The position numbers and the translations under genes are program-made. A stretch of 64,000 bases of DNA from Candidatus Moraniibacteriota bacterium (lineage in GTDB: Bacteria > Patescibacteriota > Minisyncoccia > Moranbacterales > UBA1568). Location of the stretch: positions 1,222-65,221 of the forward strand of contig CP064994.1 in assembly GCA_016699975.1 (NCBI GenBank). The letters run 5' to 3'. Below are positions 1-60,762 of the stretch, in pieces. A model generated the notes under the pieces. The model was given only the letters and a program-made list of their open reading frames with translations, did no database searches and had not been told where the DNA came from. Position 1 is the stretch's first letter; each line of letters starts with the position of its first letter.

Positions 1-1061
1 AGGTCTCCCATATCTTCTTTGCCAAGATCCTCTGCCTTATCCTTCCCGTCAAAGTTCTTCCCTTTGGAAATCCAACATCGATTCTCAAAGGTTCCTCCTG
101 CTTTCTTCTGTCCATAGTTTTTTATATTCATATGGCAGTATCCATTCTTATTAACACGGAGAGAGGAAACTGGATTTTTATTTGCGTCAAGAAGTGATAC
201 TTCCCTCATGGTAAGGTTGGGAAGTTTTCCTGAGTGACTAGATTCAGATACAGGAGATTGTCCAGATGGCTCAAGATTATCACCTACAGTATATTGAGAA
301 GGCTGATCGCCAATGTAAGTAACATAACCACTCCCTTTTCCCCCACTTTCTGGGCATGATAAGGAAGAAAGTGTATAGAAATTATTAGCCTGTTGATCAA
401 AGTAATACCATTTTACAGCGTGTTCACATGCGGCGCTGTATTGACTATGAATCCAACAGAATGGCCCATACCCGCCTGGAAGATTTCGTGCGTTTGTCAC
501 GCAAGTTGCATTTGGTTTTTCGCCATCAATTTTTTCTTCAAAATGAAGGAAGTTATGCGGGTATTCAGATGTACTAGGGGTAAGAGTACGAATTCCGTAT
601 GCTCCTTTAGTTTTATAGTTATATTCAGCAACTTCAATTGAAGAAAGATCGCCATTGCCATGCACATTTATTTTGTATACATAGGCAACATGGCCAGAGC
701 TTGATGCCCCACTGCCAGCGTTCCAGTGCGCTACACTGCCAACAGCCGGATACAGATCTACTCGAATTCCCGCTTTCCCGGCTCTATCAGTATCGTCCCA
801 AAAATGAGCATCGCTCCATTTATCAACTTGTCCGTACCAATTCGAGAAATTAACTCTATTAAGATTCAGTCGATATGCAACGTATGATGTACAATTACAA
901 GCAGCAAAGCCCCGAGCATCTGTTTTATTAATGACATCAGGACAAGTTCCAACTACCCCTTTTAGCAATTCGTACCCCTTATCCAACTCAATTGCAAGAA
1001 TGAATTCAACGTTCGCAAAATAGATAAAAAATCCTAGAAAAATCCTAGAAAAGCCTCTCAT
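1..1061 (-). CDS. CHAP-domain protein (putative secreted peptidoglycan amidase/endopeptidase); partial, 3' end beyond window start
   Basis: Not in ORF track (no in-window stop). Manual minus-strand translation from the ATG at ~1059-1061 stays open to position 1: MRGFSRIFLGFFIYFANVEFILAI (hydrophobic N-terminus) ... TDARGFAACNCTSYVAYRLN ... WNAGSGASSSGHVAYVYKI. This is a Cys/His pair with CHAP-like spacing. Region is AT-rich relative to the rest of the window. Confidence 0.5.
   Translation of the reverse strand, partial: MRGFSRIFLGFFIYFANVEFILAIELDKGYELLKGVVGTCPDVINKTDARGFAACNCTSYVAYRLNLNRVNFSNWYGQVDKWSDAHFWDDTDRAGKAGIRVDLYPAVGSVAHWNAGSGASSSGHVAYVYKINVHGNGDLSSIEVAEYNYKTKGAYGIRTLTPSTSEYPHNFLHFEEKIDGEKPNATCVTNARNLPGGYGPFCWIHSQYSAACEHAVKWYYFDQQANNFYTLSSLSCPESGGKGSGYVTYIGDQPSQYTVGDNLEPSGQSPVSESSHSGKLPNLTMREVSLLDANKNPVSSLRVNKNGYCHMNIKNYGQKKAGGTFENRCWISKGKNFDGKDKAEDLGKEDMGD
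1030..1051. repeat. perfect 11-bp tandem duplication (aatcctagaaa x2) inside the 5' end of the CHAP ORF
   Basis: Read directly from the sequence; codes ...SRIFLGFF... on the minus strand. 11 bp is not a multiple of 3, so a recent duplication would have reset the N-terminal frame. Confidence 0.8.
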
Positions 1062-1110: not shown

Positions 1111-1782
1111 TTAAAACTCCAACGTTTCCAATACTTTCCTTGCGATGTCTACTTCGGGACTGTTCCTGAAACTCGCATTTTTATCGCGTAAATATTTATC
1201 ATCTGACTGACCACAGTTAAAGCCTGCTGCAATCCCTATTTCGCGATTATTTTTCTCAATACACGACGAGAGATGGCTCTTCTCTTTAGAATCAATTTCA
1301 CTATACCCTACTTTAATGCTTTTAGATGCTGTCTTGATAATTTCTGTGTTTTTCAACTGCTTTTTTGGGTCACAATTCCAAATCGGAGTTTTGCTTTTTT
1401 CATATCCTCGAAACTCTATACAGAAGTACCCTTCTTCTCTTTCTTTCCGAGAAAAAATTTGCACGATTTCTATTTTTCCTGACCTACCGTACTCGTCCTC
1501 TATCTGTCTATAATTCCAGTTTTCTGGATAAAAGAAACTTATATCACTTGTTCCCATGTGCGCTTTCTTCCACCCTTCAGGAGGTTTGAGGTTTTTTGGG
1601 ATTTCATTTTCTTGGATGATATTTTCAGATGTGTCAGTTTTCTTTTCTGAAGATTCTGTCCCTGTCATCTCTTGCAAAACGGCTGTCTTCTTTCTGTATT
1701 CATATTGCAAAAAAGTAGTAATCAGTATTCCTCCGGTTATGAGAAGAGCAAACGAAATGATGGCAATTTTTGTTGGTTTCAT
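1111..1782 (-). CDS. hypothetical signal-anchored (N-terminal TM) protein, copy 1 of a two-member module family
   Basis: ORF 223 aa. MKPTKIAIISFALLITGGILITTFLQYEYRKK is a single N-terminal hydrophobic helix, followed by a hydrophilic body. The N-terminus and upstream promoter are ~75-80% nt identical to the gene at 26254..27104. Confidence 0.5.
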   Translation of the reverse strand: MKPTKIAIISFALLITGGILITTFLQYEYRKKTAVLQEMTGTESSEKKTDTSENIIQENEIPKNLKPPEGWKKAHMGTSDISFFYPENWNYRQIEDEYGRSGKIEIVQIFSRKEREEGYFCIEFRGYEKSKTPIWNCDPKKQLKNTEIIKTASKSIKVGYSEIDSKEKSHLSSCIEKNNREIGIAAGFNCGQSDDKYLRDKNASFRNSPEVDIARKVLETLEF

Positions 1783-1810
1783 ACCTCGTGTGAAAAATTA
1801 AACGCTGTTT

Positions 1811-1852
1811 TCATGTTTATCATACGTCCCTTGTTACACTTTTGTAAACAAG
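1811..1852 (-). promoter_or_regulatory. sigma70-like promoter candidate (minus strand: TTTACA ... TATGAT) upstream of 1782 start; block conserved upstream of 27104
   Basis: Plus strand gtttatcatacgtc...tgtaaacaag. The reverse complement gives TTTACA (-35) and TATGAT (-10) with a ~18-19 nt spacer. The same TTTAT[C/G]ATACGTC and TGTAAACAA blocks recur at 27140-27172. Confidence 0.3.
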
Positions 1853-2219
1853 TTTGTATCCATAGTTGTCACCCTTCTCTTGCTCTTCCCTCCTCCCAGA
1901 AATATCATGCGATGTTTCCTTGAGAATCCGCATGACACAGAAACGCAAAAAACTGAATTCATACAATTTTTCTCCCGTTCGGGAAGAGAGACGAACGAGC
2001 GTGAGCGCCCGTTTTTCGGGAGAGCTCGCCGAAGTCTGGGAAGAGCTTCTTGCCGACCTTGCCCCCTTGAGCGCCTCCGACATCCTCAAGGAATGCGTTC
2101 GAGTTCGAGGATTTCTACTCGAACTTCAACGAAGGCAGGTAAACGGTGAGAAAGCCTATGCTCCTCGGCTACGCTCGCGTTTCGAAGAAAGACACCCAAG
2201 ATGTCGCCGCTCAGGTCGA

Positions 2220-3350
2220 TTACTTTTTCTTTTTCGTTTGTTTCTCTTCTTTCGATTTCTTTTCGGAATCCTGCTCACTCGTACTCTCGGAATCCTTTTG
2301 TTCTTCACCCTTCAACATGTAGAAAATTTTCTTCTCCGTTCGAAGGTCGACATAGTCGAGCCTGGAGCGATCTTCGGGGGAAAGAGTTTTCGAAAAAAAG
2401 AGTCGAAGCGCAAGCAGAGATTTTTCAAGCGGAATATCCGCACTCAAAAGAAGCTGCCAGCCTTCAGTGGTACGAAAACGCATTTCGTTCGACAGTCTCG
2501 AGGGAGTTTCCACCACTTTTTCAGTTTCGATGCCGAGCGCTTCGCGAAGCTGACTCGCCGCTTCGGGAAACTCCCGAGCAAAAGATTCCGAGACGCTCCG
2601 ACTTCCTCGAACGATTGCCTTCCCCGATGTATCAAGAAGAACGGAAACTGCCGATTCTCCGGAAGAAGAAAGGGGGGGCGCCGAGTCAAATGCCTCGCCT
2701 CGCTCGTCAATCCGGAAACAGGGTCCCCCGGAACACAAAAGAAAACGTTGCTCTCGCTCGCCAAAAAGGAGCTCGATCGTCTCCGGAAAAACAATCGAGA
2801 GTTTGGCTTCCCGAAAAATCGGGAAGTCTGCTTCGAGCGTGCGAAGAATTTCCCGTCGACGAAGAAAGACGAGTGGCAACGAATTGCGAGGAAAGAGACC
2901 TGCGAATTTTCCCTCAAGAAGCAATCGAGCTCGATTTTCTACCGCTTCTTTGGAGACCGTATGCGTGCCTATGATACGGTATTCCTTTACTCGCAAAAGC
3001 GGAGAAAAAAACGCGACAAAAAATGCTGCGACAAAAAATGCTGCCCACAAAAAAGCATACCACCAGGCCCACACCACAGAAGCCGCCGGAAAGGAAGGCG
3101 ACGAACTTTCTTCTCGGGGCCGCTTCTGCACCGTTCGACTTCGACGAGGACGCAGCAAGACGTCGGGCGATGAGCGTTTCGTTCGTTTGGAAAAGAAAGC
3201 CATATCAACGAAAAAAGAGGGTGAACAAAAAAGTTCGTACACCACGATCGTCCCGACGCCTCCCCGCCCAATCGTCGACATTCCCTCTCGAGAAAGAAGA
3301 GTGTATGAGAATGCTCGGGGTTTAGGTGAAACGACGAAAAGGACGCGCAA
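2220..3350 (-). CDS. hypothetical membrane protein (one TM helix, K/E-rich C-terminal tail), co-oriented immediately downstream of holB
   Basis: ORF 376 aa with hydrophobic stretch AASVVWAWWYAFLWAAFFVAAFFVAFF and non-repetitive globular-looking C-terminal half. It overlaps the holB stop by ~29 nt; the real start may be an internal Met (aa 24). Preferred over the antisense 1866..3173 ORF, which is R/K/C-rich low complexity. Confidence 0.4.
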   Translation of the reverse strand: MRVLFVVSPKPRAFSYTLLSREGMSTIGRGGVGTIVVYELFCSPSFFVDMAFFSKRTKRSSPDVLLRPRRSRTVQKRPREESSSPSFPAASVVWAWWYAFLWAAFFVAAFFVAFFSPLLRVKEYRIIGTHTVSKEAVENRARLLLEGKFAGLFPRNSLPLVFLRRREILRTLEADFPIFREAKLSIVFPETIELLFGEREQRFLLCSGGPCFRIDERGEAFDSAPPLSSSGESAVSVLLDTSGKAIVRGSRSVSESFAREFPEAASQLREALGIETEKVVETPSRLSNEMRFRTTEGWQLLLSADIPLEKSLLALRLFFSKTLSPEDRSRLDYVDLRTEKKIFYMLKGEEQKDSESTSEQDSEKKSKEEKQTKKKK

Positions 3351-4284
3351 GGAGCAAAGACGCGCTTCGTTTAAAAAAGAAAAGCGTTTCGAGCGTCAGA
3401 CGAACGCTTCCCGGAAATCGACGCATGTCCCGAAGAGTCGACGAAACACTCTCGAGCCGCTTAAGCAGAAAACCCCGCGACAAAACGTCCTCTGAGACAA
3501 CACTCGACTGAAGAGATCCAATCCACCACGAGAGCAGTCGCTCCGCAAGGAGACTGTCCGACGCGAGCATCTGCGCAAGTTGCGCTCGTTCTTGAAACGA
3601 GAGCGAATCGAAACGAAGCAGTTGCTCCAAAAGATTTTTCTCGCGTTCATATTTTTCAGGATTATCCCGAAACAGAACCGCGATTCCAGGGCGGCCCGTT
3701 GCCAGAAAACACGCAGGCGTCTCGGGAAGGAATTGCCGAATGCGACTGTTGGGAACGAGTGAAAATGAAACTCGCTCGGTTCGCGACCGAAGCGTTGGGA
3801 GGATGGCGCCTTCTTCCTGTGCTATCAAAAATATCACCGTTTCGGGATACGGCTCCTCAAGCGTTTTGAGGAGAGCATTCTGCGCACTTTCGGTCAGGCG
3901 GTCAGCACGATCGATGATGAGAACACGACGATTCCCTCTTGAAACCGAGAGCGTGATCGTTCGAATCGCTTCGCGCACGCGCTCAACTCCGATTGGCACC
4001 TCTCGCACTCTTCCCTTTTCTTCCACAACTTCCGGGGAGAGGAGAGTAAGAGACGCAGCATGAGGAGAGTCGCCCAGAAAACGCTTTGCGCATTCGAGCG
4101 CTACCAGTCGCTTCCCCACTCCTTCGGGACCCAAAAACAAAAACGCATGCGAAGCAGCGTGGCGCTCGAACGCACGAAAAAGTCGTTTGCAAATCGCTTC
4201 GTGTCCGATAATCATTGGGGAAGAGAAAGAAAAAAATTGCCAAAAAATTTTTTCAAGAAGACGCCAGATGCCATTCGACTCCAA
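3322..4284 (-). CDS. holB: DNA polymerase III delta' subunit
   Basis: GHEAI..., HAFLFLGPEGVGK (Walker A), ALLKTLEEP and TLRSR motifs typical of HolB. Start may be the internal MIIGHE (~4215). Confidence 0.75.
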   Translation of the reverse strand: MESNGIWRLLEKIFWQFFSFSSPMIIGHEAICKRLFRAFERHAASHAFLFLGPEGVGKRLVALECAKRFLGDSPHAASLTLLSPEVVEEKGRVREVPIGVERVREAIRTITLSVSRGNRRVLIIDRADRLTESAQNALLKTLEEPYPETVIFLIAQEEGAILPTLRSRTERVSFSLVPNSRIRQFLPETPACFLATGRPGIAVLFRDNPEKYEREKNLLEQLLRFDSLSFQERAQLAQMLASDSLLAERLLSWWIGSLQSSVVSEDVLSRGFLLKRLESVSSTLRDMRRFPGSVRLTLETLFFFKRSASLLLARPFRRFT

Positions 4285-4293
4285 ATCGTTGTC

Positions 4294-5503
4294 TTAGGGG
4301 GCGAGGCCCATCACCTCCCGGACCGCGGTTCGCATCGATTCATGAAATGTTGCTTCTGAAAATCGGGACGCTTTTATGCGGATCATTTCACGATCGAAGG
4401 TTGGTTCTTGCTTGAGGTACTCTCTCACCGCACGAAGAACGGCGTCTTCAGTTGGCTCCGAAAAAAATATTCCTGAGACACCCTCTTCTACAATTTCTCG
4501 CGCGCCGCCCGCCGACAGGGTAATGACGGGGAGTCCCGCATAACTCGCTTCCCGCAAGTGCGAGTCCGAAATCTTCCTCACCCGCGAAAACAAACGCGCG
4601 AGCGCTGCTATACAAAGTCCCAAGTTTCTCGTCGCTCACGTCTCCCGCAAACAAAACGGTAGGGCCGGCATGGTGCTTAAGGCGCGCGTGCTCGCGCCCC
4701 GTCCCCACGACGACAAGCGGGAGCTCGAGCTTCGTAAACGCGGAGACGAGCGCTTCGGTGTGTTTGTATTTCGAGAGACGCGCCACCGTGAGAAAGGGTC
4801 GATCTTCCAAAAAATGAGCCGGCTCCTCTTGCGAAAGAAACGGACGGACGGGTGGAAAAACAACGCGCGGTGTCCGACGGTAATACTTTTCGATGCGCTG
4901 CGCAGTATAGTGCGAGTTCGCAAGCAGCATATCCGGGCGAAGCGACGCTTCCTTGTCCCACATCCGAAGGTACGATAAGAGCGTGCGTTTCAAGAAATGA
5001 AATCCGCCACTCTCCACGAGGTAACGTTCGTTTTCGTCCCATACGAAGCGCATCGGGGAATGGAGGTACGCGATATGCTTTGTATAAAGCCGGGTCACAA
5101 TTCCCTTCATCCATGCGCCCGACGACGAAAGCACAAGATCAAAGTCGCGAAGATCGATCGCCTCGGCCGCCGTTGGATAGAGCGGCAATAGCAAGCGGTG
5201 ACGCCTCCGGACAAATCCCGGCCATGAGCCCAGAAAAGATGTTCGCACCTCGCGGTCCCGAAACATCCCCTTCATTCCCTCCGGATCAAAAAGGAGCGTG
5301 TAAATCGGCGCTTCGGGAAAAAGGTCTGCGAGCGATCGCAGAACACGCTCCGCGCCGCCCCGGTAGAGCAGAAAATCGTGAACAAGGGCCACGCGTCCTG
5401 AGAAGGCCGGAGGAGAAACAGGAACGTGTGAAGTAGTATCTTGACGCTCAGACATATTCATGCTATACAGGGAAGTCCCAATCCGCGGACGTTTCTTTAA
5501 CAA
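4294..5503 (-). CDS. GT4-family (GT-B, family 1 Pfam) glycosyltransferase, interrupted by one apparent frameshift (ORFs 4448..5503 + 4294..4623)
   Basis: N-terminal ORF ends ...FAGEEDFGLA and then goes out of frame. The C-terminal ORF carries AGLPVITLSAGGAREIVEEGVSG. Joined, they reconstitute the EX7E / GLPVI...GG..E.V motif region of retaining GT4 enzymes. Shift is near ~4575-4600. Confidence 0.65.
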
Positions 5504-5514
5504 AAGGAAAGTAG

Positions 5515-5724
5515 ATGCAACAATCCATCACGTTCCTACAGCTTCTCAATATCTTTCTTCTAGTTGGACTTCTTTTTTCAGTAATATCCTTTGTAAAAAT
5601 TGGCTCGACTCTGAAGGAGATAGAAAAGATAGAGGCACCCGATCAATCGTCAAAGAAAGTACAAGAAGATGCCTCTGAATTAGTCAAAAAAAGTGCGTAT
5701 TTTTTACTGTTCATAATCCTTTGA
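5515..5724 (+). CDS. small hypothetical membrane protein (69 aa)
   Basis: ATG preceded by aaggaaag (SD-like). Hydrophobic core LLNIFLLVGLLFSVISFV. Sits in an intergenic gap between two minus-strand GT genes. Could be spurious. Confidence 0.3.
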   Translation: MQQSITFLQLLNIFLLVGLLFSVISFVKIGSTLKEIEKIEAPDQSSKKVQEDASELVKKSAYFLLFIIL

Positions 5725-5818
5725 CTTCTTTCCGGCATTGTCTGCTCCATGATTTATCAGACATTTATCGGACAATGATTTAGTATTCGCATCGCCAGAA
5801 TTTTTTCTTCCCCCTCCA

Positions 5819-7023
5819 TCACAAAGTGATGCAGGGAATTTTATTTTTGCAAAGAACCTGAGCCACAAGCTCTGCACATCGTTTCCACCCAAACCGAGCC
5901 GCATTCGCTCGGCCTCGTTCGATTATACCACCCCGAAACATGGGATCCAAGGCAAGGCGCTCCATTCCTTGCGCAATACTCTCAACATCGAGCGGATCCG
6001 CAAGCACGGCCCCGTCTCCCGCCACTTCCCGGAGAGCGGGGATATCCGATATGAGTGCTGGGACACCGAGCGCTCCCGCTTCGAGTACGGGAAGCCCAAA
6101 TCCTTCCGCGAGAGACGGAAACAAAAACGCGTCAGCATTTTGAAGGAGAGTCCATTTTTTTTCCTCGCTCACGTATCCAAGCTCAATGATATCCGAGCTG
6201 TCGGCCACTCCTTTTCGTACTGCCACAATATCGGCGTACCCGTATCCTGGTTTCCCCGCGAGGAGAAGTTGGTGTTTCGTGCCACAGCGCTTTTTGAAAA
6301 GTCGAAACGCGTGAATCATGCGAACAATATTCTTCCGCCTCTCAAGTCGTCCTACGAACAAAAAGTAGGGCCTTGTCTCAGAAGACGAATATCCCTCGCT
6401 CGTCACCACAGGATCCTGTAGCGTGACATCGTGCGTGATAAAGTCATGTCGGGCAACTCCCGGAGTGTTCACTCCCTCGTGAACCACATGAATTTTTGTT
6501 TCTGGCACCCGGTAGAGCCGGACCACATCGCGCTTTGTACTCTCGGAGACCGCGATGAGAGTCGACGCCCACTGACACGAGCGGCGCACGAAAAATCGCA
6601 TCATCTGTCGCGAGAGTTCCGGGTACGCCTCCGGACACGTTTCGAACTCGAGGCCGTGAATCACCACCACGGTACGGGCGGGATGAATCCATGGCACAGT
6701 ATGCGCCGGTACCAACAACACGTCCGGCGGATCAAGAGCATCGTAAGCGCGAGACCCCCCTGTGTCCACGCACCCGGCCACCCCAGTTCGCACACCTCCC
6801 ACCGAGGAGGCAAGACAAACGGCTCCGCTCCGGATAAAACTGATCCTCCTTCTGTGGATGATTGACCCTCGCGTTGCACCCCATCATTCCACCTTTCTTC
6901 ACATACAAATGACTCGTTCATTCGCAAGCTCTTCGCGAAGGGCGTCGATGAGTCGTCGCGAATACATTTCTATACCCGTTGGGTTTGGAAGGAATGCTCG
7001 AGATGCGTCGATGCCAATAATCA
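5819..7023 (-). CDS. GT4-family glycosyltransferase, interrupted by one apparent frameshift (ORFs 5819..6802 and C-terminal part of 6899..7225)
   Basis: 6899..7225 ORF ends ...RVIIGIDASRAFLPNPTGIEMYSRRLIDALREELA, a canonical GT4 N-terminus; a GTG at ~7023 gives MIIGIDA. 5819..6802 carries EGFGLPVLEAGALGVPALISD. The in-frame upstream Met at 7225 overlaps mreB and is unlikely to be the real start. Confidence 0.6.
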
Positions 7024-7122: not shown

Positions 7123-8148
7123 TTATTTCCCCATCATGATACTCCGCTTGTAGATGTCGAGATGCTCGAGAACAATGCCTGTTCCCTTCGCGACACAAAA
7201 AGCTGGGTCGTCCGCTACATAACACGGCACGCCAATGGTCCGCGCGATTAATTGATCAAGATTTTTGAGTTGCGCCGTTCCGCCCGAGAGAATCATTCCT
7301 TTGTCCATCACATCCGCAGCAAGCTCGGGCGGCGTTTCTTGAAGCACATGCTTGATGACGTTGATGATTTCGCGCAGCTCGTCCTGAATCGCTTCGGTAA
7401 TTTCATTGGACGATACTGTGAGCGTCTTCGGAAGTCCGCCCATTAAATCGCGCCCTCGAATATCGAGATATTCTTCCTTCACGAGCTGAATAGCTGAGCC
7501 GATTTTCATTTTCACTTCTTCCGCTGTTCGTTCGCCGATCGCCATACTGTATTTGCGCTTGATGTAATCGGAAATAGCCTGATCGATTCGATTGCCACCG
7601 ACGCGCGCGCTGTGCGCCGCCACAATTCCACCAAGAGAAATGATCGCGATCTCCGAGGTTCCGCCTCCAAGATTGATAATCATATTTCCCTGCGCGGTAT
7701 GAATCGGGATGCCCGCGCCGATCGCTGCAAGAATCGGTTCTTTGACCACATAGACCGCACGCGCGCCCGCCTTGATAGCCGCATCGACAACCGCACGCCG
7801 CTCGGTCGAAGTCACGCCCGCCGGAATGGAAAGGACAACTTCAGGACGAAAAAATCGCACTCGTCCTGAGACGAGCCCGATAAAATAGCGGAGCATCGCT
7901 TCCGTAATCCGATAGTCGGCGATCGCGCCGTCTTTGAGGGGTTGGGAGGCGACAATGGTGTCCGGCGTTCGCCCGAGCATTTCTTTTGCTTCGTTGCCAA
8001 CCGCAAGCACCTTGTTCTCCCCGATTGAGACCGCGACAACCGAAGGCTCATTCACGACGATACCCCGACCCGGCACAAAGACGAGCGTATTGGCTGTTCC
8101 TAAATCGATACCGATTTTTTTGACGAACATGGAAAAAATAAAAAGCAA
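7123..8148 (-). CDS. mreB: rod shape-determining actin homologue MreB
   Basis: IGIDLGTANTLVFVPGRGIVVNEPSVVAV..., full-length 341 aa, actin-fold phosphate-binding motifs present. Alternative start at Met7. Confidence 0.85.
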   Translation of the reverse strand: MLFIFSMFVKKIGIDLGTANTLVFVPGRGIVVNEPSVVAVSIGENKVLAVGNEAKEMLGRTPDTIVASQPLKDGAIADYRITEAMLRYFIGLVSGRVRFFRPEVVLSIPAGVTSTERRAVVDAAIKAGARAVYVVKEPILAAIGAGIPIHTAQGNMIINLGGGTSEIAIISLGGIVAAHSARVGGNRIDQAISDYIKRKYSMAIGERTAEEVKMKIGSAIQLVKEEYLDIRGRDLMGGLPKTLTVSSNEITEAIQDELREIINVIKHVLQETPPELAADVMDKGMILSGGTAQLKNLDQLIARTIGVPCYVADDPAFCVAKGTGIVLEHLDIYKRSIMMGK

Positions 8149-8394
8149 AAAGTATGATTCTCTTTTCCCTGAGAGCTCCCTGAGGGAACAAAAAAATACA
8201 AGAACGAGAAATTACGAAAAATGATAAGAGGCGCTCGAAAAATTTCTCTCTGCACGAAAAACGTAAAGGAATGCGTGATGTCGAGGAGTGAAGTCGCGGA
8301 TTGGCGGGAGATACAAGAAAAAAGAGCCATCTCCCCTTCTCTCAGAAAGAACCTCCTCCCCCTCCAATTCCTTTCGCACCAAAGGAAAGAAATT

Positions 8395-10001
8395 TTACGA
8401 CTGTTTTTCCATGCGGACAATCTGCGCGCCTATTTTTTGAAGACGCTTCTCGATAGACTCGTAGCCGCGATCGACCTGATAGATATCCTCGATCGTGGTA
8501 ACGCCTTGAGCTGCGAGAGCCGCGATAATGAGCGAGGCTCCAGCACGAAGATCGAAGCTCTTAATCGTGGTCCCGCGAAGAGGGGCCGGGCCATGGATCA
8601 CGGCTTGATGAGGATTGAGCACGGTTGCCCGAACGCGCATTTTTTCGAATTCGGAAATGTAATTGAAACGACCTTCGTAAAAGTGTTCGTGAATGAGCGT
8701 TTCACCTTCCGCACGCGTCGCAAGAACTGCAAAGAGAGAGAGCGCATCGGTCGGGATACCGGGATACAATTCTGATTTCACTTTTCCCGGGGAGATGAGT
8801 TTTCTGGCAGGAAGCACGGTTATACGATCCGACTCAATCCGAAAGTCGACTCCGAAATCTCGCATTTTGGAGAGCACTGCCTCAAGGTGCTCCTCGCGTG
8901 CGCCCGATACGGTAAGCGTGCTTCCCGTCACCGCCCCAGAATGAGGAAAGTGGTCGCCTCTATCGGATCGGCAATAACCGTGTGTTGTGCTCCATGGAGG
9001 ACACCGCCTTCGATAGTGAGCGTATGCGAACCGAGTCCCGTGATACGCGCACCCATCGCTTTCAAAAAATTTCCCAGATCTTCGACGTGCGGCTCTCCCG
9101 CGGCAAGGAGAAGCGTTGTCTTTCCTGGAAGAGACGCGGCAAGCATGAGGGCATCCTCGGTTGAAGTGACTGAAAATTCCCGTTGCACCACTTTCCCCGC
9201 TCGACGATCACTCGCATCTACTTCGTAGTGTTTTTCATGTTTCGTGATGCGAATGCCGAGCTGTTCCAGAGCATTCACGTGCGTTTCTATAGAACGCGCA
9301 CCGATCGCACATCCGCCGGGATGGCCGAGAACAAATCGCTCGCACCGAGCAGAAAGCGCCCCAAACAGGAGAACCGACATGCGAACTCGTCGTGTTTCAT
9401 CGAGAGAGAGGCGCTCGGGCGAGAGCGTCTTCGCCTCTATACGGAGAGTTCGTTCATTGAGCCACGTTACTTCGGCACCAAGACTCTTTATAATTTCGAG
9501 GAGACGAAATACATCCTCTATCCGAGGCACGTTGTGAAGAACACACGGCTCCTCTGTAAGAAGAGTCGCGACGATAAGAGGGGCGGCGGCGTTCTTCGAG
9601 CCGCGCACTTCAATTTCTCCCGAGAGAGTTTTTCCGCCTTCAATGCGAAATATCGATTCGCTCATGAGCCGAGTATAGACAAGAAACCCCTTTCTTTCAA
9701 GGAGAGGACGCCCCTTCCTCCCCCGTAAAAACTTCCGAGAAAAACTGTCTCGAGAAACATTTCTGAGGAGAGTCTTAGGAGAGAAATGATTTTCTGTGGC
9801 GTTTCCGATGAAAGGAAATTGCGAATCGATGCGCCTCAGCATTCGCAAGAAGCATCGATTTCCCGAAACGCTCCTTTTCTTCGCCGCCCAAAATTTCTTT
9901 CGGTTTGTGATGCGCATCTTTGAGAACCGAAAAAACAGGAATCGAGAGATCCCGATCGCGAAGAATTGCTTCCGCAACATGACGCTGCACATCCGATCCA
10001 T
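8395..10001 (-). CDS. murA: UDP-N-acetylglucosamine 1-carboxyvinyltransferase, split by a single-base frameshift (ORFs 8928..10001 + 8395..8931)
   Basis: N-terminal part ...GSKNAAAPLIVATLL...; C-terminal part ...TVSGAREEHLEAVLSKMRDFG...IPTD.... At the junction the sequence ctggggcggtg reads FLILGR* in one frame and AVTGSTL in the next. Inserting one extra g restores FLILGAVTGSTLTVSG. Confidence 0.85.
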
Positions 10002-11102
10002 CGACTACAAGCGCGTCAGGGAAGGTCCATTCCGAATGCGCGAGCCGGCGGCGAAGCAATTCTTCGAGCGCGACGAGATCATTGCCTTTCGCCTCGCCTC
10101 GAAGAATAAATTTTCGATAACTCGCGGGATCAGTGTGGCCGTTTTGCACCACGGTCATCACACCGACCGTGTGTGAGCCGCCAAGATACGCCACATCATA
10201 CGCTTCGATCCGAAATGCATTGCCCGACAAACGTTCCTCGCGATCACGCACAACGAGGGCGACATCTCGAATATGATTCAGGGAAAAGAGCGTTTTCTTT
10301 ATGTTCGCTGCTCGTTCAAAATCAAGATCCGACGCTGCGCTCGCCATTTCTTTCTCGAGAAGACGAACGAGCGAACGCTTCTTCCCCGAGAAAAAGAGGC
10401 GAATATGGCGTATCGTTTTCGCATACTCTTTTGCCGAAATGGCACCCGCACAAACGCCAGGACACAATCCGATCTGCGCATTGAAACAGGGTTTTGGCGG
10501 GAGAGGCACAAGCCCGCTCGGCGGCGTGCATGTATCCCGAAACGGAAAAATTTTCCGAATGATGCGCAGGGCTTCGAAAAGTGAACGCCCTGCCGGAAAC
10601 GGCCCGAACGATGCTTTTACACGAGAGCGAGCCTTCGTTCGTTTTCGTTTTTGACCGTCCTCTTCGGGGAGAGCTGCGGGATTTGAAAGCCGCGCGAACG
10701 CTCTTCCTCGCTCGACAAGAACCCGCGGAAACGCCTCATCGGTAATAACAACCATGTTCCAGCTCTTGTCATCTTTAACGTCGGTATTATAGGGAGGCTG
10801 ATGACGTTTGATAAGTTCGGATTCGAGGAGGAGCGCTTCCAACCTGAATCAGTTTTTTGAAATTCTATCGACGATGCCATGGCGATCATGCGCTCGATTT
10901 TCGGCCCGCGTGTCAGAAAAATATCGCGAGAGAAATAGCTGCGAACACGATCGCGAAGCGACGTCGCCTTCCCGATATAGAGAACGTTTTTGTTGTCGTC
11001 GAGAAAAAAATACACACCCGGCTCATCCGGGAGCGTTCGAAAAAATGTGGATTCAAAGACACTCGAATTCATAGAAGAAGGAGGTGGAAGCACAGCGGAC
11101 AC
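9775..11102 (-). CDS. uvrC: excinuclease ABC subunit C (short form lacking the C-terminal HhH region), split by a single-base frameshift (ORFs 10617..11102 + 9775..10842)
   Basis: N-terminal GIY-YIG: EPGVYFFLDDNKNVLYIGKATSLRDRVRSYF ... SIEFQKTDS, then out of frame. Second ORF EALLLESELIKRHQPPYN ... central Cys-rich and endonuclease region. At the junction gattcaggttgg, restoring one g gives DSGLEALLLE. Total ~440 aa. Confidence 0.8.
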
Positions 11103-11329: not shown

Positions 11330-11640
11330 CTTGAAAGAGAAGCCCTTCTCTCCCGAAGGGGTATTGGTACAATCCTGGAACCAGTAGCTGGGTTGAGTAC
11401 ACCGGGGCTTGTAGTGGGACACAGAATGGAAACTGGTGCCAGGGACCTGTCACGGCAACAGTGACTCATGCGAATATTGATACAACGAGTGCACAGACAC
11501 CCGTTACCTTTGTCGGGATGACCTGCTCTGTACAAACCGGTGCCTGGAAGTGTGGGTGTCGGGATACCACCTGTTCCTCCTTCTTGTGGCAGGTGCAGGG
11601 AGCGGGGAGGTAGGGGGTGAGCTCGTCTCTATTGGCAGAG
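11330..11640 (+). ncRNA. candidate structured RNA with RNase P RNA-like (bacterial type A) sequence blocks; boundaries approximate
   Basis: 560-bp non-coding gap between uvrC and the zinc peptidase gene. Contains ACACCGGGGCUUGUAGUGGGAC (cf. CR-I GUCCGGGCUCCAUAGGGCA), GGUGCCAGG (identical to the P5 block), CACGGCAACAGUGAC (cf. AGUGCAACAGAGAG) and ACAAACCGGUGCC (cf. CR-V ACAGAACCCGGCU). CACCGG and CCGGUG can form P4, and there are local hairpins (CCCUUC/GAAGGG, CCAG/CUGG). It is shorter than a typical rnpB; no covariance-model search could be run. Confidence 0.3.
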
Positions 11641-11661
11641 AATTCTTTGAGAGATTCATTT

Positions 11662-12636
11662 TTACTCCGTTCTTGAGAGACATGTCTCAAGCGAACCACC
11701 CTCATACCCGCGAGTGAAGGCGCTGACTCGTTCTTCCGAAGAGCCATGTGTCCAGGTTTCGGGATTCGTATATCCCTGCGCTTTCTCCTGGATCCGATCG
11801 TCTCCGACCGCGGCTGCCGCGTCCATCGCCTCGGAAATTTCGTTGGGCTCAAACACGGATTTGTCTTTGAGCGAATGTGCCCAGACTCCCGCAAGACAAT
11901 CAGCCTGTAGCTCCATCCTCACCGATTCTTCATTGGTCCGTGCAGCCGTTTTCAGTTTTCCTAAAATATTTTGTACGTGGTGACCTCCCTCGTGAGCAAT
12001 GACATACGCCTGTGCAACATCGCCGCCCTTCGCTCCGAGTTTCTGAGTCAAAACATCAAAAAATGTTTCATCGAGATAGAGAGTGGAGTCCAGAGGACAA
12101 TAGTGAGGACCAATACTCGACGTAGCACCTCCGCACGAAGACGGGGTTTGATCACGAAATAAGACAAGCCTTGGCGGCACATATTGCTTTCCGATCTTTT
12201 CAAACGCCGACCGCCACACTTCGTCGTTCGAACCGAGTACCGTCGAAGCGAATCGTTCGTACGAATCCTCCCCTTCATAGTCCACATGGTTGCGCGAAAC
12301 ATTCGAGGAAGACATTTCCGGGAGAAGCTGTATCGCCCGGTCCAGCGTCTCCGGAAGCGAATTTCCCAAGAGAAGATTTATCCCTACAAACAGTGCGATT
12401 CCAGTGAGACCGATTCCGCTCACGCCGGAAACCATGCCCCGGCGATCTTCCACGCTGCCGCGAGCCGAAATTTTATCCCAGAATGCCATAGGTGATTTGA
12501 TAGCGAGAAAAGCAAAAAGTCGAGAGAAAAAGGGTTCATCATAATGAGGGGGCGCGAAGAATACTGACGATTGGAAAGAGTGAATGGTGCAAGAAAAAAG
12601 AAGTGTCATTATCATAAAGGATATTCGGCAACTCAA
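11662..12636 (-). CDS. putative neutral zinc metallopeptidase (YpfJ family)
   Basis: N-terminal TM region then YVIAHEGGHHVQNILGK...ELQADCLAGVWAHS, the HExxH-like signature and layout of the YpfJ/Zn_peptidase_2 family. The real start is probably an internal Met (MAFWDK or MVSGVSG). Confidence 0.65.
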   Translation of the reverse strand: MSCRISFMIMTLLFSCTIHSFQSSVFFAPPHYDEPFFSRLFAFLAIKSPMAFWDKISARGSVEDRRGMVSGVSGIGLTGIALFVGINLLLGNSLPETLDRAIQLLPEMSSSNVSRNHVDYEGEDSYERFASTVLGSNDEVWRSAFEKIGKQYVPPRLVLFRDQTPSSCGGATSSIGPHYCPLDSTLYLDETFFDVLTQKLGAKGGDVAQAYVIAHEGGHHVQNILGKLKTAARTNEESVRMELQADCLAGVWAHSLKDKSVFEPNEISEAMDAAAAVGDDRIQEKAQGYTNPETWTHGSSEERVSAFTRGYEGGSLETCLSRTE

Positions 12637-12833: not shown

Positions 12834-15401
12834 TCATTTTTCCTTCTTGAGAACACGCTTCAGATAGACCCCGGTATGAGATCGCGGATTCGCGGCCACT
12901 TGCTCAGGAGTCCCTTTCGCAACAAGCATTCCGCCGCCCGCACCACCTTCCGGACCAATATCGAGAAGGTAGTCCGAATTTTTCAAAATATCAATATTGT
13001 GTTCGATAAGGACAACGGTGTTCCCTTTCTCAACCAAACGCTCGAGAATTTCGATGAGCTTTTTCACATCGTCATAATGAAGTCCGACGGTGGGCTCGTC
13101 GAGGAGATACATGGTTCGGTGAAGATCGGGCCGATAGAGTTCGCTTGCGATTTTCACGCGCTGCGCCTCGCCTCCCGAGAGCGTCGTCGCCGACTGGCCG
13201 AGTTCCAAATAGCCAAGTCCAACATCGAGAAGGGTCTTGAGGCGATCAGCAATTGCCGGAATATCTTTAAAAAATTCAAACGCTTCTTCCGCCGTCATGC
13301 GGAGCACTTCCGAAATGTTTTTGTTTTTGTATTCGATTTCGAGCGTCTCTTTCGTAAAGCGCTTCCCGCCGCAGACATCACAGAGAACATAGACGGTCGG
13401 AAGAAAGTGCATCTCGACTGCGATCTCGCCGTTTCCTTCGCAGGCCTCGCACCGCCCACCACGCACATTAAATGAGAATCGCCCCGGCTTCCACCCACGA
13501 AGACGCGCTTCCGATGTCATTGCAAACATATCGCGAATATGCGTCCACATACCCGTATAGGTTGCCGGATTCGAACGAGGCGTTCTGCCAATCGGAGACT
13601 GATCAATCAAGACCGCACGCGACAAATATTCGGTTCCCGAAAACGAAGTGCAATTGATCACCTTCGGACTCTTGTATCGGCGATCCAGTCGCGCCTGCAG
13701 ATTTTTGTACAGTATTTCGTACAAAAAGGTAGATTTCCCTGATCCCGAAACTCCGGTAATCCCGACCATCCGTCCGAGCGGAATATCGGCATCGAGGTTG
13801 GTAATGTTAAACGCTTTTCCTCCCCGAATTTTGATCGCTCCTTTTTCTTTCGTGCGGCGACGCAGAGGAAGGGGGATAAACGATTCGCCGCGCAAATACG
13901 AAAGCGTGCGCGAGCCCGACGTATTTTTCTTCGCGGTAAGGAGTTCTTCCAAAAATCCAGACACAACGACGGATCCGCCGTGAACTCCGGCAGCGGGTCC
14001 GATATCAACAATATAGTCCGCAGAAAAGAGCGTGTCTTCATCATGCTCCACGACAAGAATCGTATTCCCAAGATTGCGAAGTTCGAGAAGCGTTTTGATG
14101 AGGCGATCGTTGTCACGCGGGTGAAGTCCGATCGTTGGTTCATCAAGAACATAGAGCGCTCCGACAAGCCGACTCCCGAGTTGTGAAGCGAGCCGAATAC
14201 GCTGCGACTCCCCGCCCGAAAGGGTGTTCGCGCGCCGGTCGAGCGAGAGATAATCGAGTCCCACATCGAGAAGAAAAGCGAGTCGCGCACCAATCTCTCG
14301 AAGCACTACCGAAGCAATCGCGCGTTCCCGATCGGTCAAGTGCGCCGTATCAAGAAATTGTTTCGCTTCACCGATCACCATACTCGAAAACTGCACGATA
14401 TTTTTGTCGGCTACTTTCACATGAAGCGCCTCTTCGCGAAGACGACTCCCCTTGCAGAGAGGACACGGCTCCGATCCGAAAAAATGTTTCGTTCCGAGTC
14501 CGTTACAGTCCGGACACGCCCCGAAAGGCGAATTGAAAGAGAAGAGCCGTGGCTCTACTTCCGGATACGAAAAGCCATCGTACGGACACGAATATTTGGA
14601 AGAGAGAAGCTTCTCTTCAGAGCCGACCACAATTTTTACAAGTCCTTCAGTTTCTTCAAGAGAACGCTCCACTGCTTCCCGCAAACGCATCCCGGCGTCG
14701 GCACTCCAGATCGCACTCTTCATTTCCGAAACGGGAATCGTATCAACGAGCATATCGATATCGTGCGTCTTGTACTTTGAGAGCACCACTCGCTCACGAA
14801 GACTTTTCATTTCGCCGTCGATCCGTGCTTCGGAAAATCCTTTTCCGAGATAGTCGTAGAGAAGCTGATAGTACTCGCCCTTTCGACCGCGCACGACGGG
14901 CGCAAAAATTCGAAGCGCCGCATTCGGTTCGGCATGCGTCGCGCGCTCCGTGATGAAACCAATCATTTCATCTGTCGAGAGCTTAGAAATTTCCCGTCCG
15001 CACGTGAGGCAGTGAGGGCGGCCAATGCGCGCATACAAGACACGCAAGTAGTCATAGATTTCGGTGACGGTCGCTACAGTCGAACGCGGATTCGACGAGC
15101 GCGATTTTTGGTCGATGGATATGGCAGGCGAGAGACCCTCGATTTCATCGACATCCGGCTTTTGCATTTGATTCAAAAATTGACGTGCATACGCCGAAAG
15201 CGACTCGACATATCGTCGCTGCCCTTCTGCAAAGATGGTATCGAAGGCGAGTGACGATTTTCCGGATCCTGAGAGTCCCGTAAAGGCGGTCATTTTTCCG
15301 CGCGGGATCGATACCGTAACATTCTTCAAATTGTGCGTCCGCGCCCCTTTCACCGTAATCCATTCTTGCGGGGAGTGAGGTTCGTTTCGTTTGTGCGCCA
15401 T
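12834..15401 (-). CDS. uvrA: excinuclease ABC subunit A (compact, 855 aa)
   Basis: ARTHNLKNVTVSIPRGKMTAFTGLSGSGKSSLAFDTIFAEGQRRYVESLSAYARQFL, two ABC modules with LSGGE signatures and Cys-rich zinc-finger insertions. Confidence 0.9.
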   Translation of the reverse strand: MAHKRNEPHSPQEWITVKGARTHNLKNVTVSIPRGKMTAFTGLSGSGKSSLAFDTIFAEGQRRYVESLSAYARQFLNQMQKPDVDEIEGLSPAISIDQKSRSSNPRSTVATVTEIYDYLRVLYARIGRPHCLTCGREISKLSTDEMIGFITERATHAEPNAALRIFAPVVRGRKGEYYQLLYDYLGKGFSEARIDGEMKSLRERVVLSKYKTHDIDMLVDTIPVSEMKSAIWSADAGMRLREAVERSLEETEGLVKIVVGSEEKLLSSKYSCPYDGFSYPEVEPRLFSFNSPFGACPDCNGLGTKHFFGSEPCPLCKGSRLREEALHVKVADKNIVQFSSMVIGEAKQFLDTAHLTDRERAIASVVLREIGARLAFLLDVGLDYLSLDRRANTLSGGESQRIRLASQLGSRLVGALYVLDEPTIGLHPRDNDRLIKTLLELRNLGNTILVVEHDEDTLFSADYIVDIGPAAGVHGGSVVVSGFLEELLTAKKNTSGSRTLSYLRGESFIPLPLRRRTKEKGAIKIRGGKAFNITNLDADIPLGRMVGITGVSGSGKSTFLYEILYKNLQARLDRRYKSPKVINCTSFSGTEYLSRAVLIDQSPIGRTPRSNPATYTGMWTHIRDMFAMTSEARLRGWKPGRFSFNVRGGRCEACEGNGEIAVEMHFLPTVYVLCDVCGGKRFTKETLEIEYKNKNISEVLRMTAEEAFEFFKDIPAIADRLKTLLDVGLGYLELGQSATTLSGGEAQRVKIASELYRPDLHRTMYLLDEPTVGLHYDDVKKLIEILERLVEKGNTVVLIEHNIDILKNSDYLLDIGPEGGAGGGMLVAKGTPEQVAANPRSHTGVYLKRVLKKEK

Positions 15402-26074: not shown

Positions 26075-26105
26075 TGGGAGATTCCCTATAGATATAAATA
26101 ATGGG

Positions 26106-26138
26106 AAAGGCAAAACACAATTGTTTTGCCTTTTTATT
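26106..26138 (+). terminator. rho-independent terminator (AAGGCAAAAC-acaau-GUUUUGCCUU + UUUAUU)
   Basis: gggaaaggcaaaacacaattgttttgcctttttattattg read directly from the sequence. Confidence 0.55.
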
Positions 26139-26253: not shown

Positions 26254-27104
26254 TCACTCAAATCTCAAACTGTCCAGAAGATGATCAAAGCTCTCGCTCT
26301 CGATTTTCTTAAGGTCATCTTGAGTATACTGAGCCCTCTCCTCTGGTCTGACATAATGTTGCTTGTAGAGAACAAGAGATTTTTCCTTCGCAAGAGGAAT
26401 ATTCACTTCCATCCACTTTGAATACGGGTCTGGAGTATTCTCTCCGAAAGAAATGAAAGCCGAACGACCTCCAATGGTTTTCTTCAATGTAAATCGAAAA
26501 TTTATTGTAGGCAGTATAAAGAGGTCTATTTGAGTAGAACTTGCAGTCGGATAGGATATCCCACCGAGTGAAGACAGAGATGCTTTGGGAAATCCAGGAA
26601 AGTTTCCTGGATTAATATACTCATCAAAAACTTTTTTCATTTCTTCATATTTCATATTTTTGAGCATCTCCCAATTGAAGTCGAGATATTGCCCTGAAAG
26701 TTCCGGGTTTTCTTTGATGTTTCCAAAATAATTTGTGGCGAAAAACTCCCTCAACTCCTCTTCCGTCATCTCTCTTTCTCCAGAATTTCTTGTTTCTACA
26801 AAGTAGGTATCGGGAACTTCAAAGGAGAAGGTGATTTGCCCATCGTGGATGGTCACTTTTTTGTACGGACCTTCAATATCTTTAACGCCCGTGATTTTAC
26901 TTTCAGGAAGCACTTTGTTGTAGCGTTCGAATTCCGCTTGCGAGAAAGTGCTGCTTGAGGAGATTCTTGTACAGATTCGGCACGATTCACTGCTTGTGAA
27001 GCGCTCTGTTCTTTTCTGCGTTCGTATCGGAAGAGTACGGTGAGCAGTATTCCTCCAGTTACGAAAAGAGCGAAAATCACGATGGCGGTTTTTGTTGGTT
27101 TCAT
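26254..27104 (-). CDS. hypothetical signal-anchored protein, copy 2 of the shared-promoter/leader family; frameshifted (ORFs 26853..27104 + 26254..26913)
   Basis: N-terminus MKPTKTAIVIFALFVTGGILLTVLFRYERRKE matches the 1111..1782 N-terminus MKPTKIAIISFALLITGGILITTFLQYEYRKK. The body (26254..26913, GTG-initiated in another frame) has no similarity to the body of copy 1. Confidence 0.45.
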
Positions 27105-27137
27105 AGATTCGAAAAGAAGTGAGTGATTGTTGTTTGA

Positions 27138-27175
27138 GTTTATGATACGTCTATGATGAGCGTGTAAACAAAAAT
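27138..27175 (-). promoter_or_regulatory. promoter candidate conserved with 1811..1852 (minus strand TTTACA/TTGTTT ... TATCAT)
   Basis: Plus strand gtttatgatacgtct...gtgtaaacaaaaa. Same blocks as upstream of the paralogue at 1782. Confidence 0.3.
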
Positions 27176-60750: not shown

Positions 60751-60762
60751 TTTCTCAAAGAG

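Follow-up and report, generated by a model that had tools for sequence, protein, structure and literature searches.

A window of 64,000 nucleotides (nt) from Candidatus Moraniibacteriota bacterium (GenBank assembly GCA_016699975.1, contig CP064994.1, positions 1,222 to 65,221) contains two genes, here called copy 1 and copy 2, which start with the same DNA and continue into bodies of different sequence families. The shared 5′ module is about 130 nt long, made up of a promoter block and the first 31 codons, and mosaics of the same kind are present in at least three further genomes. Copy 1 and copy 2 would encode single-pass, membrane-tethered extracytoplasmic proteins of two families, F1 and F2, and the module would combine a sigma-70-type promoter (TTTACA-18-TAT[G/C]AT) with a 31-codon N-terminal signal-anchor helix. 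The best explanation overall, which we regard as likely, is that 5′ ends are exchanged or homogenised by recombination or gene conversion inside one genome and then held by purifying selection, with the ectodomains, those of presumptive hydrolase partners, remaining deeply divergent. The parts of the two genes are as follows.

1111-1782, minus strand: copy 1 gene (NCBI IPL87_00010), family F1, 223 amino acids (aa), from the open reading frame (ORF) call.
1691-1783, minus strand: coding part of the copy 1 module, the ATG and 31 codons encoding the membrane anchor, from the repeat with 27013-27105 and the codon table.
1815-1851, minus strand: conserved block upstream of copy 1, holding a promoter-like site, from the promoter scan, motif search and block alignment.
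26254-27104, minus strand: copy 2 gene, family F2, split in this assembly, from the ORF frames.
26853-27104, minus strand: copy 2 anchor ORF, 83 aa, from the ORF frames.
26254-26913, minus strand: copy 2 body ORF, 219 aa, NCBI IPL87_00125, from the ORF frames.
27013-27105, minus strand: coding part of the copy 2 module, from the repeat with 1691-1783.
27138-27171, minus strand: conserved upstream block of copy 2, TTGTTTACA ... ACGTATCATAAAC, from the motif search.

The coding parts of the two modules form the top direct repeat of the window, with 74% identity over 93 nt. The best local alignment of the copies covers 61 nt at 80% identity and scores 33.5, against 11.0 ± 1.0 in 200 shuffles. A first-pass annotation of this DNA had pointed to a common 5′ coding segment of about 100 nt, and these alignments confirm it. 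The segment runs from the ATG to codon 31-32, ending just past the hydrophobic helix, and the anchor peptides that it encodes, MKPTKIAIISFALLITGGILITTFLQYEYRKK in copy 1 and MKPTKTAIVIFALFVTGGILLTVLFRYERRKE in copy 2, are identical at 19 of 30 positions. The identity of 75-80% that the same annotation gave for about 70 bp upstream was overstated: a global alignment of 78 nt yields 56%, and the conservation lies in two blocks found by motif search, TTGTTTACA (1843-1851 and 27163-27171) and ACGTAT[G/C]ATAAAC (1815-1827 and 27138-27150). The first-pass annotation also placed both copies in AT-rich islets, in agreement with a GC content of 37.1% at the copy 1 locus and 41.1% at the copy 2 locus, compared with 49.1% for the whole window.

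In the AlphaFold 2 models a continuous helix extends over residues 3-40 of both window proteins. A lipoprotein leader was rejected on inspection because the lipobox Cys is lacking, there being no Cys within the first 60 residues of either protein, and a type IV pilin-like leader was rejected for want of a G|F...E motif. An Rfam scan of the window returned no family, and thus the 5′ region is not a known RNA element.

A promoter scan of copy 1 called TTTACA (1848-1843) and TATGAT (1824-1819), separated by a spacer of 18 nt and matching at 10 of 12 positions. The same scan called no promoter in the window form of the copy 2 upstream region. Copy 2 is found intact, as a 283-aa gene, on contig L014 of an independent Logan short-read assembly from the same population, which carries the same DUF1361 neighbour; its product, P0025, falls within the 90% cluster of the copy 2 body. 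There the promoter reads TTTACA-18-TATCAT, again with 10 of 12 matching positions and with a geometry equal to that of copy 1. When the upstream region of copy 1 is aligned with that of the L014 gene, a gapless block of 37 nt appears in which 27 positions are identical, a score reached by none of 2000 shuffles. Within this block the -35 and -10 hexamers stand at the same 18-nt spacing, and their distance to the ATG is equal to within 1 nt.

Over 2568 nt, L014 and the window differ by 2 substitutions and 3 indel events, at about 25938, 26943 and 27152. At the last of these the window lacks AAA inside the copy 2 promoter spacer, which measures 15 nt in the window and 18 nt in L014. At about 26943 it lacks a T, and this is the frameshift that splits the gene.

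26940-26946, minus strand: single-nt deletion, TCTTCG to TCTCG, responsible for the copy 2 frameshift, from the alignment with L014.

The anchor ORF and the body ORF consequently overlap in different frames; the first-pass annotation was right about the shared module at this locus and did not mention the split. We found 18 homologues of copy 2, 17 of them from other assemblies, and most of these 17 are 255-316 aa long and continuous across the break. The conserved motif AxFxKYNKVL falls upstream of the copy 2 start annotated by NCBI, and exact look-ups of the 83-aa and 219-aa ORFs gave no match. As judged from these sequences, the frameshift is probably an assembly error or a strain variant, and copy 2 is treated here as a gene of 283 aa. 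The copy 1 locus is reproduced by an independent assembly (L001) with 2 mismatches and no indel over 1554 nt. Two tandem PilB/GspE-type ATPase genes (Pfam T2SSE; 59079-62091, plus strand) lie elsewhere in the window. The first of their ORFs (59079-60314) ends at position 256 of the 370 of the T2SSE profile, and the missing C-terminal part continues in another frame, fused to the 5′ end of the next ORF, of 667 aa. This second frameshift, in a conserved gene, suggests that indel errors occur elsewhere in the assembly.

The evidence that carries our interpretation comes from three further sources with the same mosaic, L002/L003, L008 and L019, all of them uncultured bacteria. L002 and L003 are independent assemblies of one locus, where the F1 orthologue is preceded by a gene that differs from it in the body but is 93% identical to it over the first 80 coding nt, the shared anchor being MKLQRTSIIIIS.LTLLLVGAGVFWCG. 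In L008 (‘Ca. Paceibacteria bacterium JTS-AC323’) a module of 165 nt, of which 70 nt are upstream and 95 nt coding, is present in three genes with 82-84% identity; the bodies behind it belong to a family here called Fx, to Pfam PsbP_2 (L008_b, 27.2 bits, the gathering score of PF18933 being 27 bits) and to F2. L019, a contig of 303 kb, has a 212-nt module in four genes and two relics, and the bodies are an F2, an Fx, a PsbP_2-like protein (L019_3, E 4.4e-4) and one other. In each genome examined, the module boundary comes directly after the leader or anchor.

Over the N-terminal 30 aa, identity within a genome amounts to 26/30 in the L002 pair, 27-29/30 in the L008 trio and 19-23/30 in the L019 quartet, alongside the 19/30 of the window pair. 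Between genomes it is 4-13/30 for all pairs, those with orthologous bodies included. F1 and F2 bodies match within their family (E 1e-15 to 1e-95) and never across the families of one genome. Anchors thus group by genome and bodies by family, a pattern for which vertical descent of whole genes is insufficient and which requires exchange or homogenisation of 5′ ends within genomes. L008 and L019 share three body families and differ in the module, so the body families predate the split of these lineages and the modules are lineage-internal. The relatives of F1 and F2 elsewhere all start with an N-terminal hydrophobic helix of unrelated sequence; a common generic signal peptide, the objection that the first-pass annotation raised against its own proposal, is therefore excluded. 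Its picture of a promoter and signal-anchor module placed on extracellular parts of different sequence families is supported by the recurrence of the mosaic. As for the module having been ‘duplicated onto’ these bodies, the sharing holds, and duplication and homogenisation by gene conversion are indistinguishable.

Another Moraniibacteriota genome, L009 (CP064974.1), has two F2 paralogues that share a 206-nt tract at 98% identity (5720-5925 and 8082-8287). The tract lies inside the conserved N-terminal subdomain, and the anchors and C-terminal parts of the paralogues differ. For the second paralogue, P0014, the annotated TTG start looks too far downstream; starting instead at the ATG that lies in frame 66 nt before it gives the protein a normal anchor.

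Purifying selection is visible in the module itself. Synonymous divergence (dS) among the L008 modules is 0.42-0.75 and nonsynonymous divergence (dN) 0.01-0.03, and the L002 module gives 0.36 and 0.02, respectively. Synonymous divergence without amino-acid divergence indicates that the DNA has a common origin well in the past and has been under purifying selection since. In L008 the non-coding upstream part is conserved better than the synonymous sites of the anchor codons, which, together with the dS of the modules, indicates that the exchange was not very recent and that promoter and exact anchor have since been kept by selection. The window module pair is less constrained (dS 0.66, dN 0.25). 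In the other genomes, the strictness with which a simple membrane anchor has been kept may point to a specific partner in the membrane.

Whether the bodies themselves are related bears directly on the interpretation. Searched exhaustively with HMMER, copy 1 proved to have five distant relatives, with 27-42% identity, and these define F1, with the motifs W..A.M..SGISF.YPK.W, EEGYFC, FNC.QSD and a C-terminal EILETL.F, and with two invariant cysteines. F2, the family of copy 2, is larger. A BLASTP alignment of copy 1 with copy 2 is confined to the first 100 residues, and the bodies alone give none. Comparison of F1 with F2 by hhalign matched just the transmembrane helix and, after trimming, a 17-residue hairpin at E = 0.09 (range 0.09-0.29). 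Two motifs are nevertheless found in both bodies, GxxSFxxPxxW in a hairpin and hLxTLxF at the C-terminus.

The AlphaFold models of copy 1 and copy 2 (mean confidence, pLDDT, 78 and 71) show the same order of helix, disordered linker, beta-rich domain and C-terminal helix. In copy 1 this layout comprises the N-terminal hydrophobic helix, the linker, a beta-rich ectodomain with the two invariant Cys and the C-terminal helix. Foldseek searches of the PDB returned weak matches to PsbP/CyanoP, Tsi3, Apa, LpqN, DcrB, BT_1490 and 3lyd for copy 1, and to Tsi3, Apa, CyanoP and 3lyd for copy 2, Tsi3 being the best PDB fold match for copy 2 and within the top ten for copy 1. Neither copy 1 nor the frameshift-corrected copy 2 matches Pfam, and PsbP_2 is not among their hits at E ≤ 1. 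Below the threshold, 3 of 6 F1 members match PsbP_2 (best E 6.4e-4) and none of the 18 F2 members does; profile-profile comparison gives a best E of 4.7e-4 for F1 (33% probability) and 0.014 for F2, in the hairpin only. A PDB sequence search found a non-significant PsbP match for F1 (E 0.22) and none for F2. Like the domains of the PsbP_2 and PsbP/Mog1-like group (PsbP, CyanoP, LpqN, DcrB, Apa), the bodies are predicted to have an N-terminal hairpin, an antiparallel sheet and a C-terminal helix; they differ in that the window proteins match no Pfam model, while the array neighbours L008_b and L019_3 do match PsbP_2. The bodies belong to different sequence families, which according to the models probably share a PsbP-like fold. 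The bodies had been called unrelated by the first-pass annotation, which proposed fold prediction as a check: the lack of sequence similarity stands, and the word ‘unrelated’ is not supported, in view of the common motifs and of the same, if weak, set of fold matches (PsbP/CyanoP, Tsi3, Apa, 3lyd). Neither homology nor unrelatedness of the F1 and F2 bodies is established.

A plain duplication of whole genes, in which F1 and F2 would be old paralogues and selection alone would have conserved their 5′ ends with no recombination, accounts for the same architecture, possibly the same fold, and for the SFxxPxxW hairpin and C-terminal TLxF motifs common to both; the purifying selection evident on the anchors is also in its favour. 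Vertical descent, however, predicts that the anchor follows the body, whereas the anchors of orthologues are unrelated and different families within one genome share theirs. Moreover, identical codons at four-fold sites and the conserved non-coding blocks argue that the 5′ DNA is younger than the bodies. We therefore consider whole-gene duplication improbable.

The boundary right behind the leader in every genome examined, and the arrays of alternative bodies in L008 and L019, recall surface-protein families that switch expression. In the vsp, vlp, vpma and vsa arrays of Mycoplasma, a near-identical 5′ untranslated region and signal peptide precede differing mature parts, and expression is switched by promoter slippage or by site-specific inversion with a nearby recombinase. 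Programmed switching of the vsa/vpma type would here mean that an expression site is moved by site-specific recombination onto silent bodies. In contrast to the Mycoplasma arrays, there is no recombinase within about 3 kb of either copy, and there are neither inverted nor silent copies. Both copies lie on the minus strand with a start codon of their own, and each has its own promoter-like site, that of copy 2 in the L014 form, so that none appears silent. The window copies are direct and 25 kb apart, and recombination between them would delete the intervening genes. In addition, independent assemblies agree (L001 and L014 with the window, L002 with L003), and the module copies differ by 7-30%, unlike active recombination sites. 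Switching of this kind is accordingly very unlikely.

Least credible of all, to the point of being negligible, is a chance likeness of hydrophobic signal sequences or an assembly artefact: hydrophobic leaders do have a biased composition and the assembly does have indel problems, but the nucleotide scores are far above those of shuffled sequences, both loci are reproduced by independent short-read assemblies, and a degenerate MKPTK...TGGI[LF] pattern occurs twice in the window with 0.00 expected in shuffles, while as a degenerate DNA pattern, MKPTK-x(8-12)-TGGI[LF], it has no match in 185,579 species-representative genomes (source genome not included) and only 4 in JGI metagenomes, all of them unrelated chance matches.

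The likely function of the anchored proteins can be approached through their neighbours. The first-pass annotation had noted that copy 1 precedes a CHAP hydrolase, and Pfam agrees.

1-1061, minus strand: 5′ part of a gene for a secreted CHAP cell-wall hydrolase, cut by the window edge (Pfam CHAP, 5.8e-10).

This gene starts 49 nt downstream of copy 1. A terminator scan found no terminator-like site between the two, and the module promoter therefore probably drives both as one transcript. With the CHAP+CARDB proteins of L002 and L005 the window CHAP protein shares 53-62% identity, and CARDB is present in its orthologues. In the window, L002/L003 and L005 the neighbour of F1 is a CHAP+CARDB hydrolase, and in L007 it is a CARDB protein; F2 adjoins CHAP in L008, L009, L011, L012, L019 and L020. 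CHAP and/or CARDB thus occurs within one or two genes in all 4 distinct F1 loci and in all 6 F2 loci outside the window. The window copy 2 is the exception: no hydrolase gene follows it, and tblastn with CHAP proteins finds just 1-1061 in the window.

The partner gene is usually upstream of the hydrolase gene, and the hydrolases have a signal-peptide-like N-terminus. In the small sample available, the N-terminal 260 aa of the hydrolases score 270-333 bits among those linked to F1, 48-288 among five linked to F2 and at most 37 across the two groups, so the partner family co-varies with the hydrolase subtype. In the L019 array, CHAP, M23 and CHAP+RicinB hydrolases are interleaved with small anchored proteins. 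The first-pass annotation took the bodies for possible effectors, which is not supported: since both families are consistently found beside CHAP/CARDB hydrolases, an effector role is more likely for the hydrolase, with the bodies as its partners. From gene context we infer that the anchored proteins are hydrolase-specific, membrane-tethered partners, most likely inhibitor- or immunity-like and less likely activators or scaffolds. The common promoter would provide co-expression, and the common anchor would bring the proteins to one place in the membrane or to one membrane partner. Specific hydrolases would be bound by the variable PsbP/Tsi3-like ectodomains, and copy 2 would be an orphan partner, its cognate hydrolase missing from the window.

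Pairs of a cell-wall-hydrolase effector and its immunity protein, of the Tse3-Tsi3 type, are well known, as are arrays of orphan immunity genes. The clusters described here resemble them in that a small envelope protein is encoded beside a secreted peptidoglycan hydrolase, in the co-variation of partner family and hydrolase, in the multi-hydrolase array of L019 and in the orphan-like copy 2. The Tsi3-like fold matches, weak as they are, and the orphan copy 2 both fit an inhibitor or immunity role. Unlike in that type, the partner gene here is usually upstream of the hydrolase gene, not downstream, and no marker of type VI, type VII or other delivery was seen. A phage origin was rejected, with no relatives in IMG/VR and no PHROG match, and an NCBIfam search gave nothing useful.

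Several points weigh against our interpretation. The window holds only two module copies, and they are the weakest example of the mosaic, with 74% nt identity and a dN/dS of about 0.4. Copy 2 is frameshifted in this assembly and has no hydrolase neighbour. The dS estimates are based on only about 20 synonymous sites, and the fold matches are weak, with Foldseek E values of 1e-3 to 5e-2 and template-modelling (TM) scores of 0.2-0.6. The short CHAP of L008 and the CHAP of L019 fit the two hydrolase groups poorly, and the case for an immunity or regulator role comes solely from gene order and co-variation.

The CHAP/CARDB hydrolase is often followed by a small protein, about 70-117 aa in length (L002 3870-4181, L005 3585-3902, L012 1914-2264, and further ones at L020 3301-3654 and L009 11028-11243). 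Where the N-terminus was inspected, these proteins have a signal-peptide-like hydrophobic start, and some have the motif ALQANPDYDWP; those scanned gave no significant Pfam, PHROG or NCBIfam match. This small secreted protein may be a third component of the clusters. In L011, a contig binned as Bdellovibrionales, probably wrongly, three repeat copies (1-90, 789-878, 1740-1780) resemble a tRNA 3′ end followed by a hairpin, and they separate single genes, for a membrane protein and a trypsin-like peptidase, immediately upstream of an F2-CHAP+CARDB cluster. ARAGORN found no intact tRNA in them. The repeats may be traces of repeated integration.

The arrangement of the clusters allows a broader proposal, which we put forward only tentatively: hydrolase and membrane-anchored partner clusters of Paceibacteria may be exchangeable cassettes, whose conserved junctions act as homology arms for shuffling or homogenisation within a genome. 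A junction would consist of the 3′ end of a hydrolase gene together with the promoter and anchor of the next gene. In L019 such junctions measure about 0.5 kb (9638-10133, 11582-11961, 13334-13829). The last 300 nt of three genes there, counted as hydrolases and encoding a CHAP protein, an M23 protein and an unassigned 369-aa protein, are 89-96% identical and pass straight into the promoter-anchor module that follows; the ORF of the M23 protein continues into a module copy that has decayed. Fragments of CHAP genes are duplicated at 97-99% identity beside genes for anchored proteins in L002 (1171-1320 and 2247-2396), L005 (1-300 and 2487-2786) and L008 (7797-7929 and 9526-9658), a sign that segments of these clusters have been duplicated or converted repeatedly. 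The L005 duplicate reaches the contig end, where an assembly effect is possible. If the cassettes exist, the near-perfect amino-acid conservation of the anchor of each genome (dN/dS about 0.02-0.07) would imply a single dedicated membrane component at which all partners dock, and the whole would be a previously undescribed attack-and-defence toolkit of episymbionts.

L019 also contains a duplicated gene (96-98% nt identity, no Pfam match) that lies between the N-terminal and C-terminal halves of another F2 gene. The region comprises 4002-4700 and 5339-5884 on the minus strand and 4971-5309 and 6346-6876 on the plus strand. The F2 gene appears disrupted, and the duplicated gene is possibly an insertion-sequence gene.

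The two window copies sit on a contig of 1.05 Mb with housekeeping genes around them, for example those for DNA polymerase III delta′ and glycosyltransferases. Their neighbours are an ORF of 376 aa with no Pfam match, DNA polymerase III delta′, a glycosyltransferase, SIMPL, fn3 and DUF1361 proteins and an unassigned ORF of 477 aa. The 376-aa ORF (2220-3350, minus strand) is overlapped by long Lys/Arg-rich ORFs on the opposite strand (1866-3500), which look like non-coding shadows of a GA-rich coding strand and not like genes. One further feature lies close to copy 2.

26104-26135, no strand: hairpin resembling a bidirectional terminator, about 120 nt downstream of copy 2, from the terminator scan.

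The closest analogue of this organisation is the erp (ospE/ospF/elp), or ‘upstream homology box’, family of Borrelia burgdorferi. Its paralogues share promoter/operator DNA and a leader peptide, and the exported parts are diverse in origin and recombine, so that in both systems one 5′ expression and export module precedes many bodies and would give co-expression. The differences are nevertheless considerable. Erp leaders are lipoprotein signal peptides with a lipobox, whereas the anchor found here is apparently uncleaved and has no lipobox Cys. The erp genes occupy allelic sites on cp32 prophage plasmids; those described here are chromosomal, without IMG/VR relatives, and belong to hydrolase clusters of a bacterium of the Candidate Phyla Radiation (CPR), with a module sequence that is specific to each genome. 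One promoter and leader on many bodies is therefore already known from Borrelia, and what is new is the lineage, the type of anchor and the hydrolase context. Searches of literature full text found no paper joining ‘Candidate Phyla Radiation’ with PsbP, or Patescibacteria with ‘CHAP domain’. The window instance is modest, with two copies at 74% identity and one of them damaged here; the wider pattern in Paceibacteria is recurrent and so far undescribed.

CPR bacteria, or Patescibacteria, live attached to other cells, and little is known of their surface proteins or of how they handle cell walls, be it their own or those of the host. The clusters analysed here have a recurrent design, in which a small secreted protein and a PsbP/Tsi3-like partner tethered to the membrane accompany a secreted CHAP or M23 hydrolase. 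Within a genome, the partners undergo concerted evolution of promoter and anchor and keep distinct ectodomains. Taken together, these features lead to the hypotheses that hydrolase and partner may form cognate inhibitor or immunity pairs, that the partners may be co-regulated through their common promoter, and that they may share a docking partner in the membrane. They also provide a simple sequence signature with which such clusters could be located.

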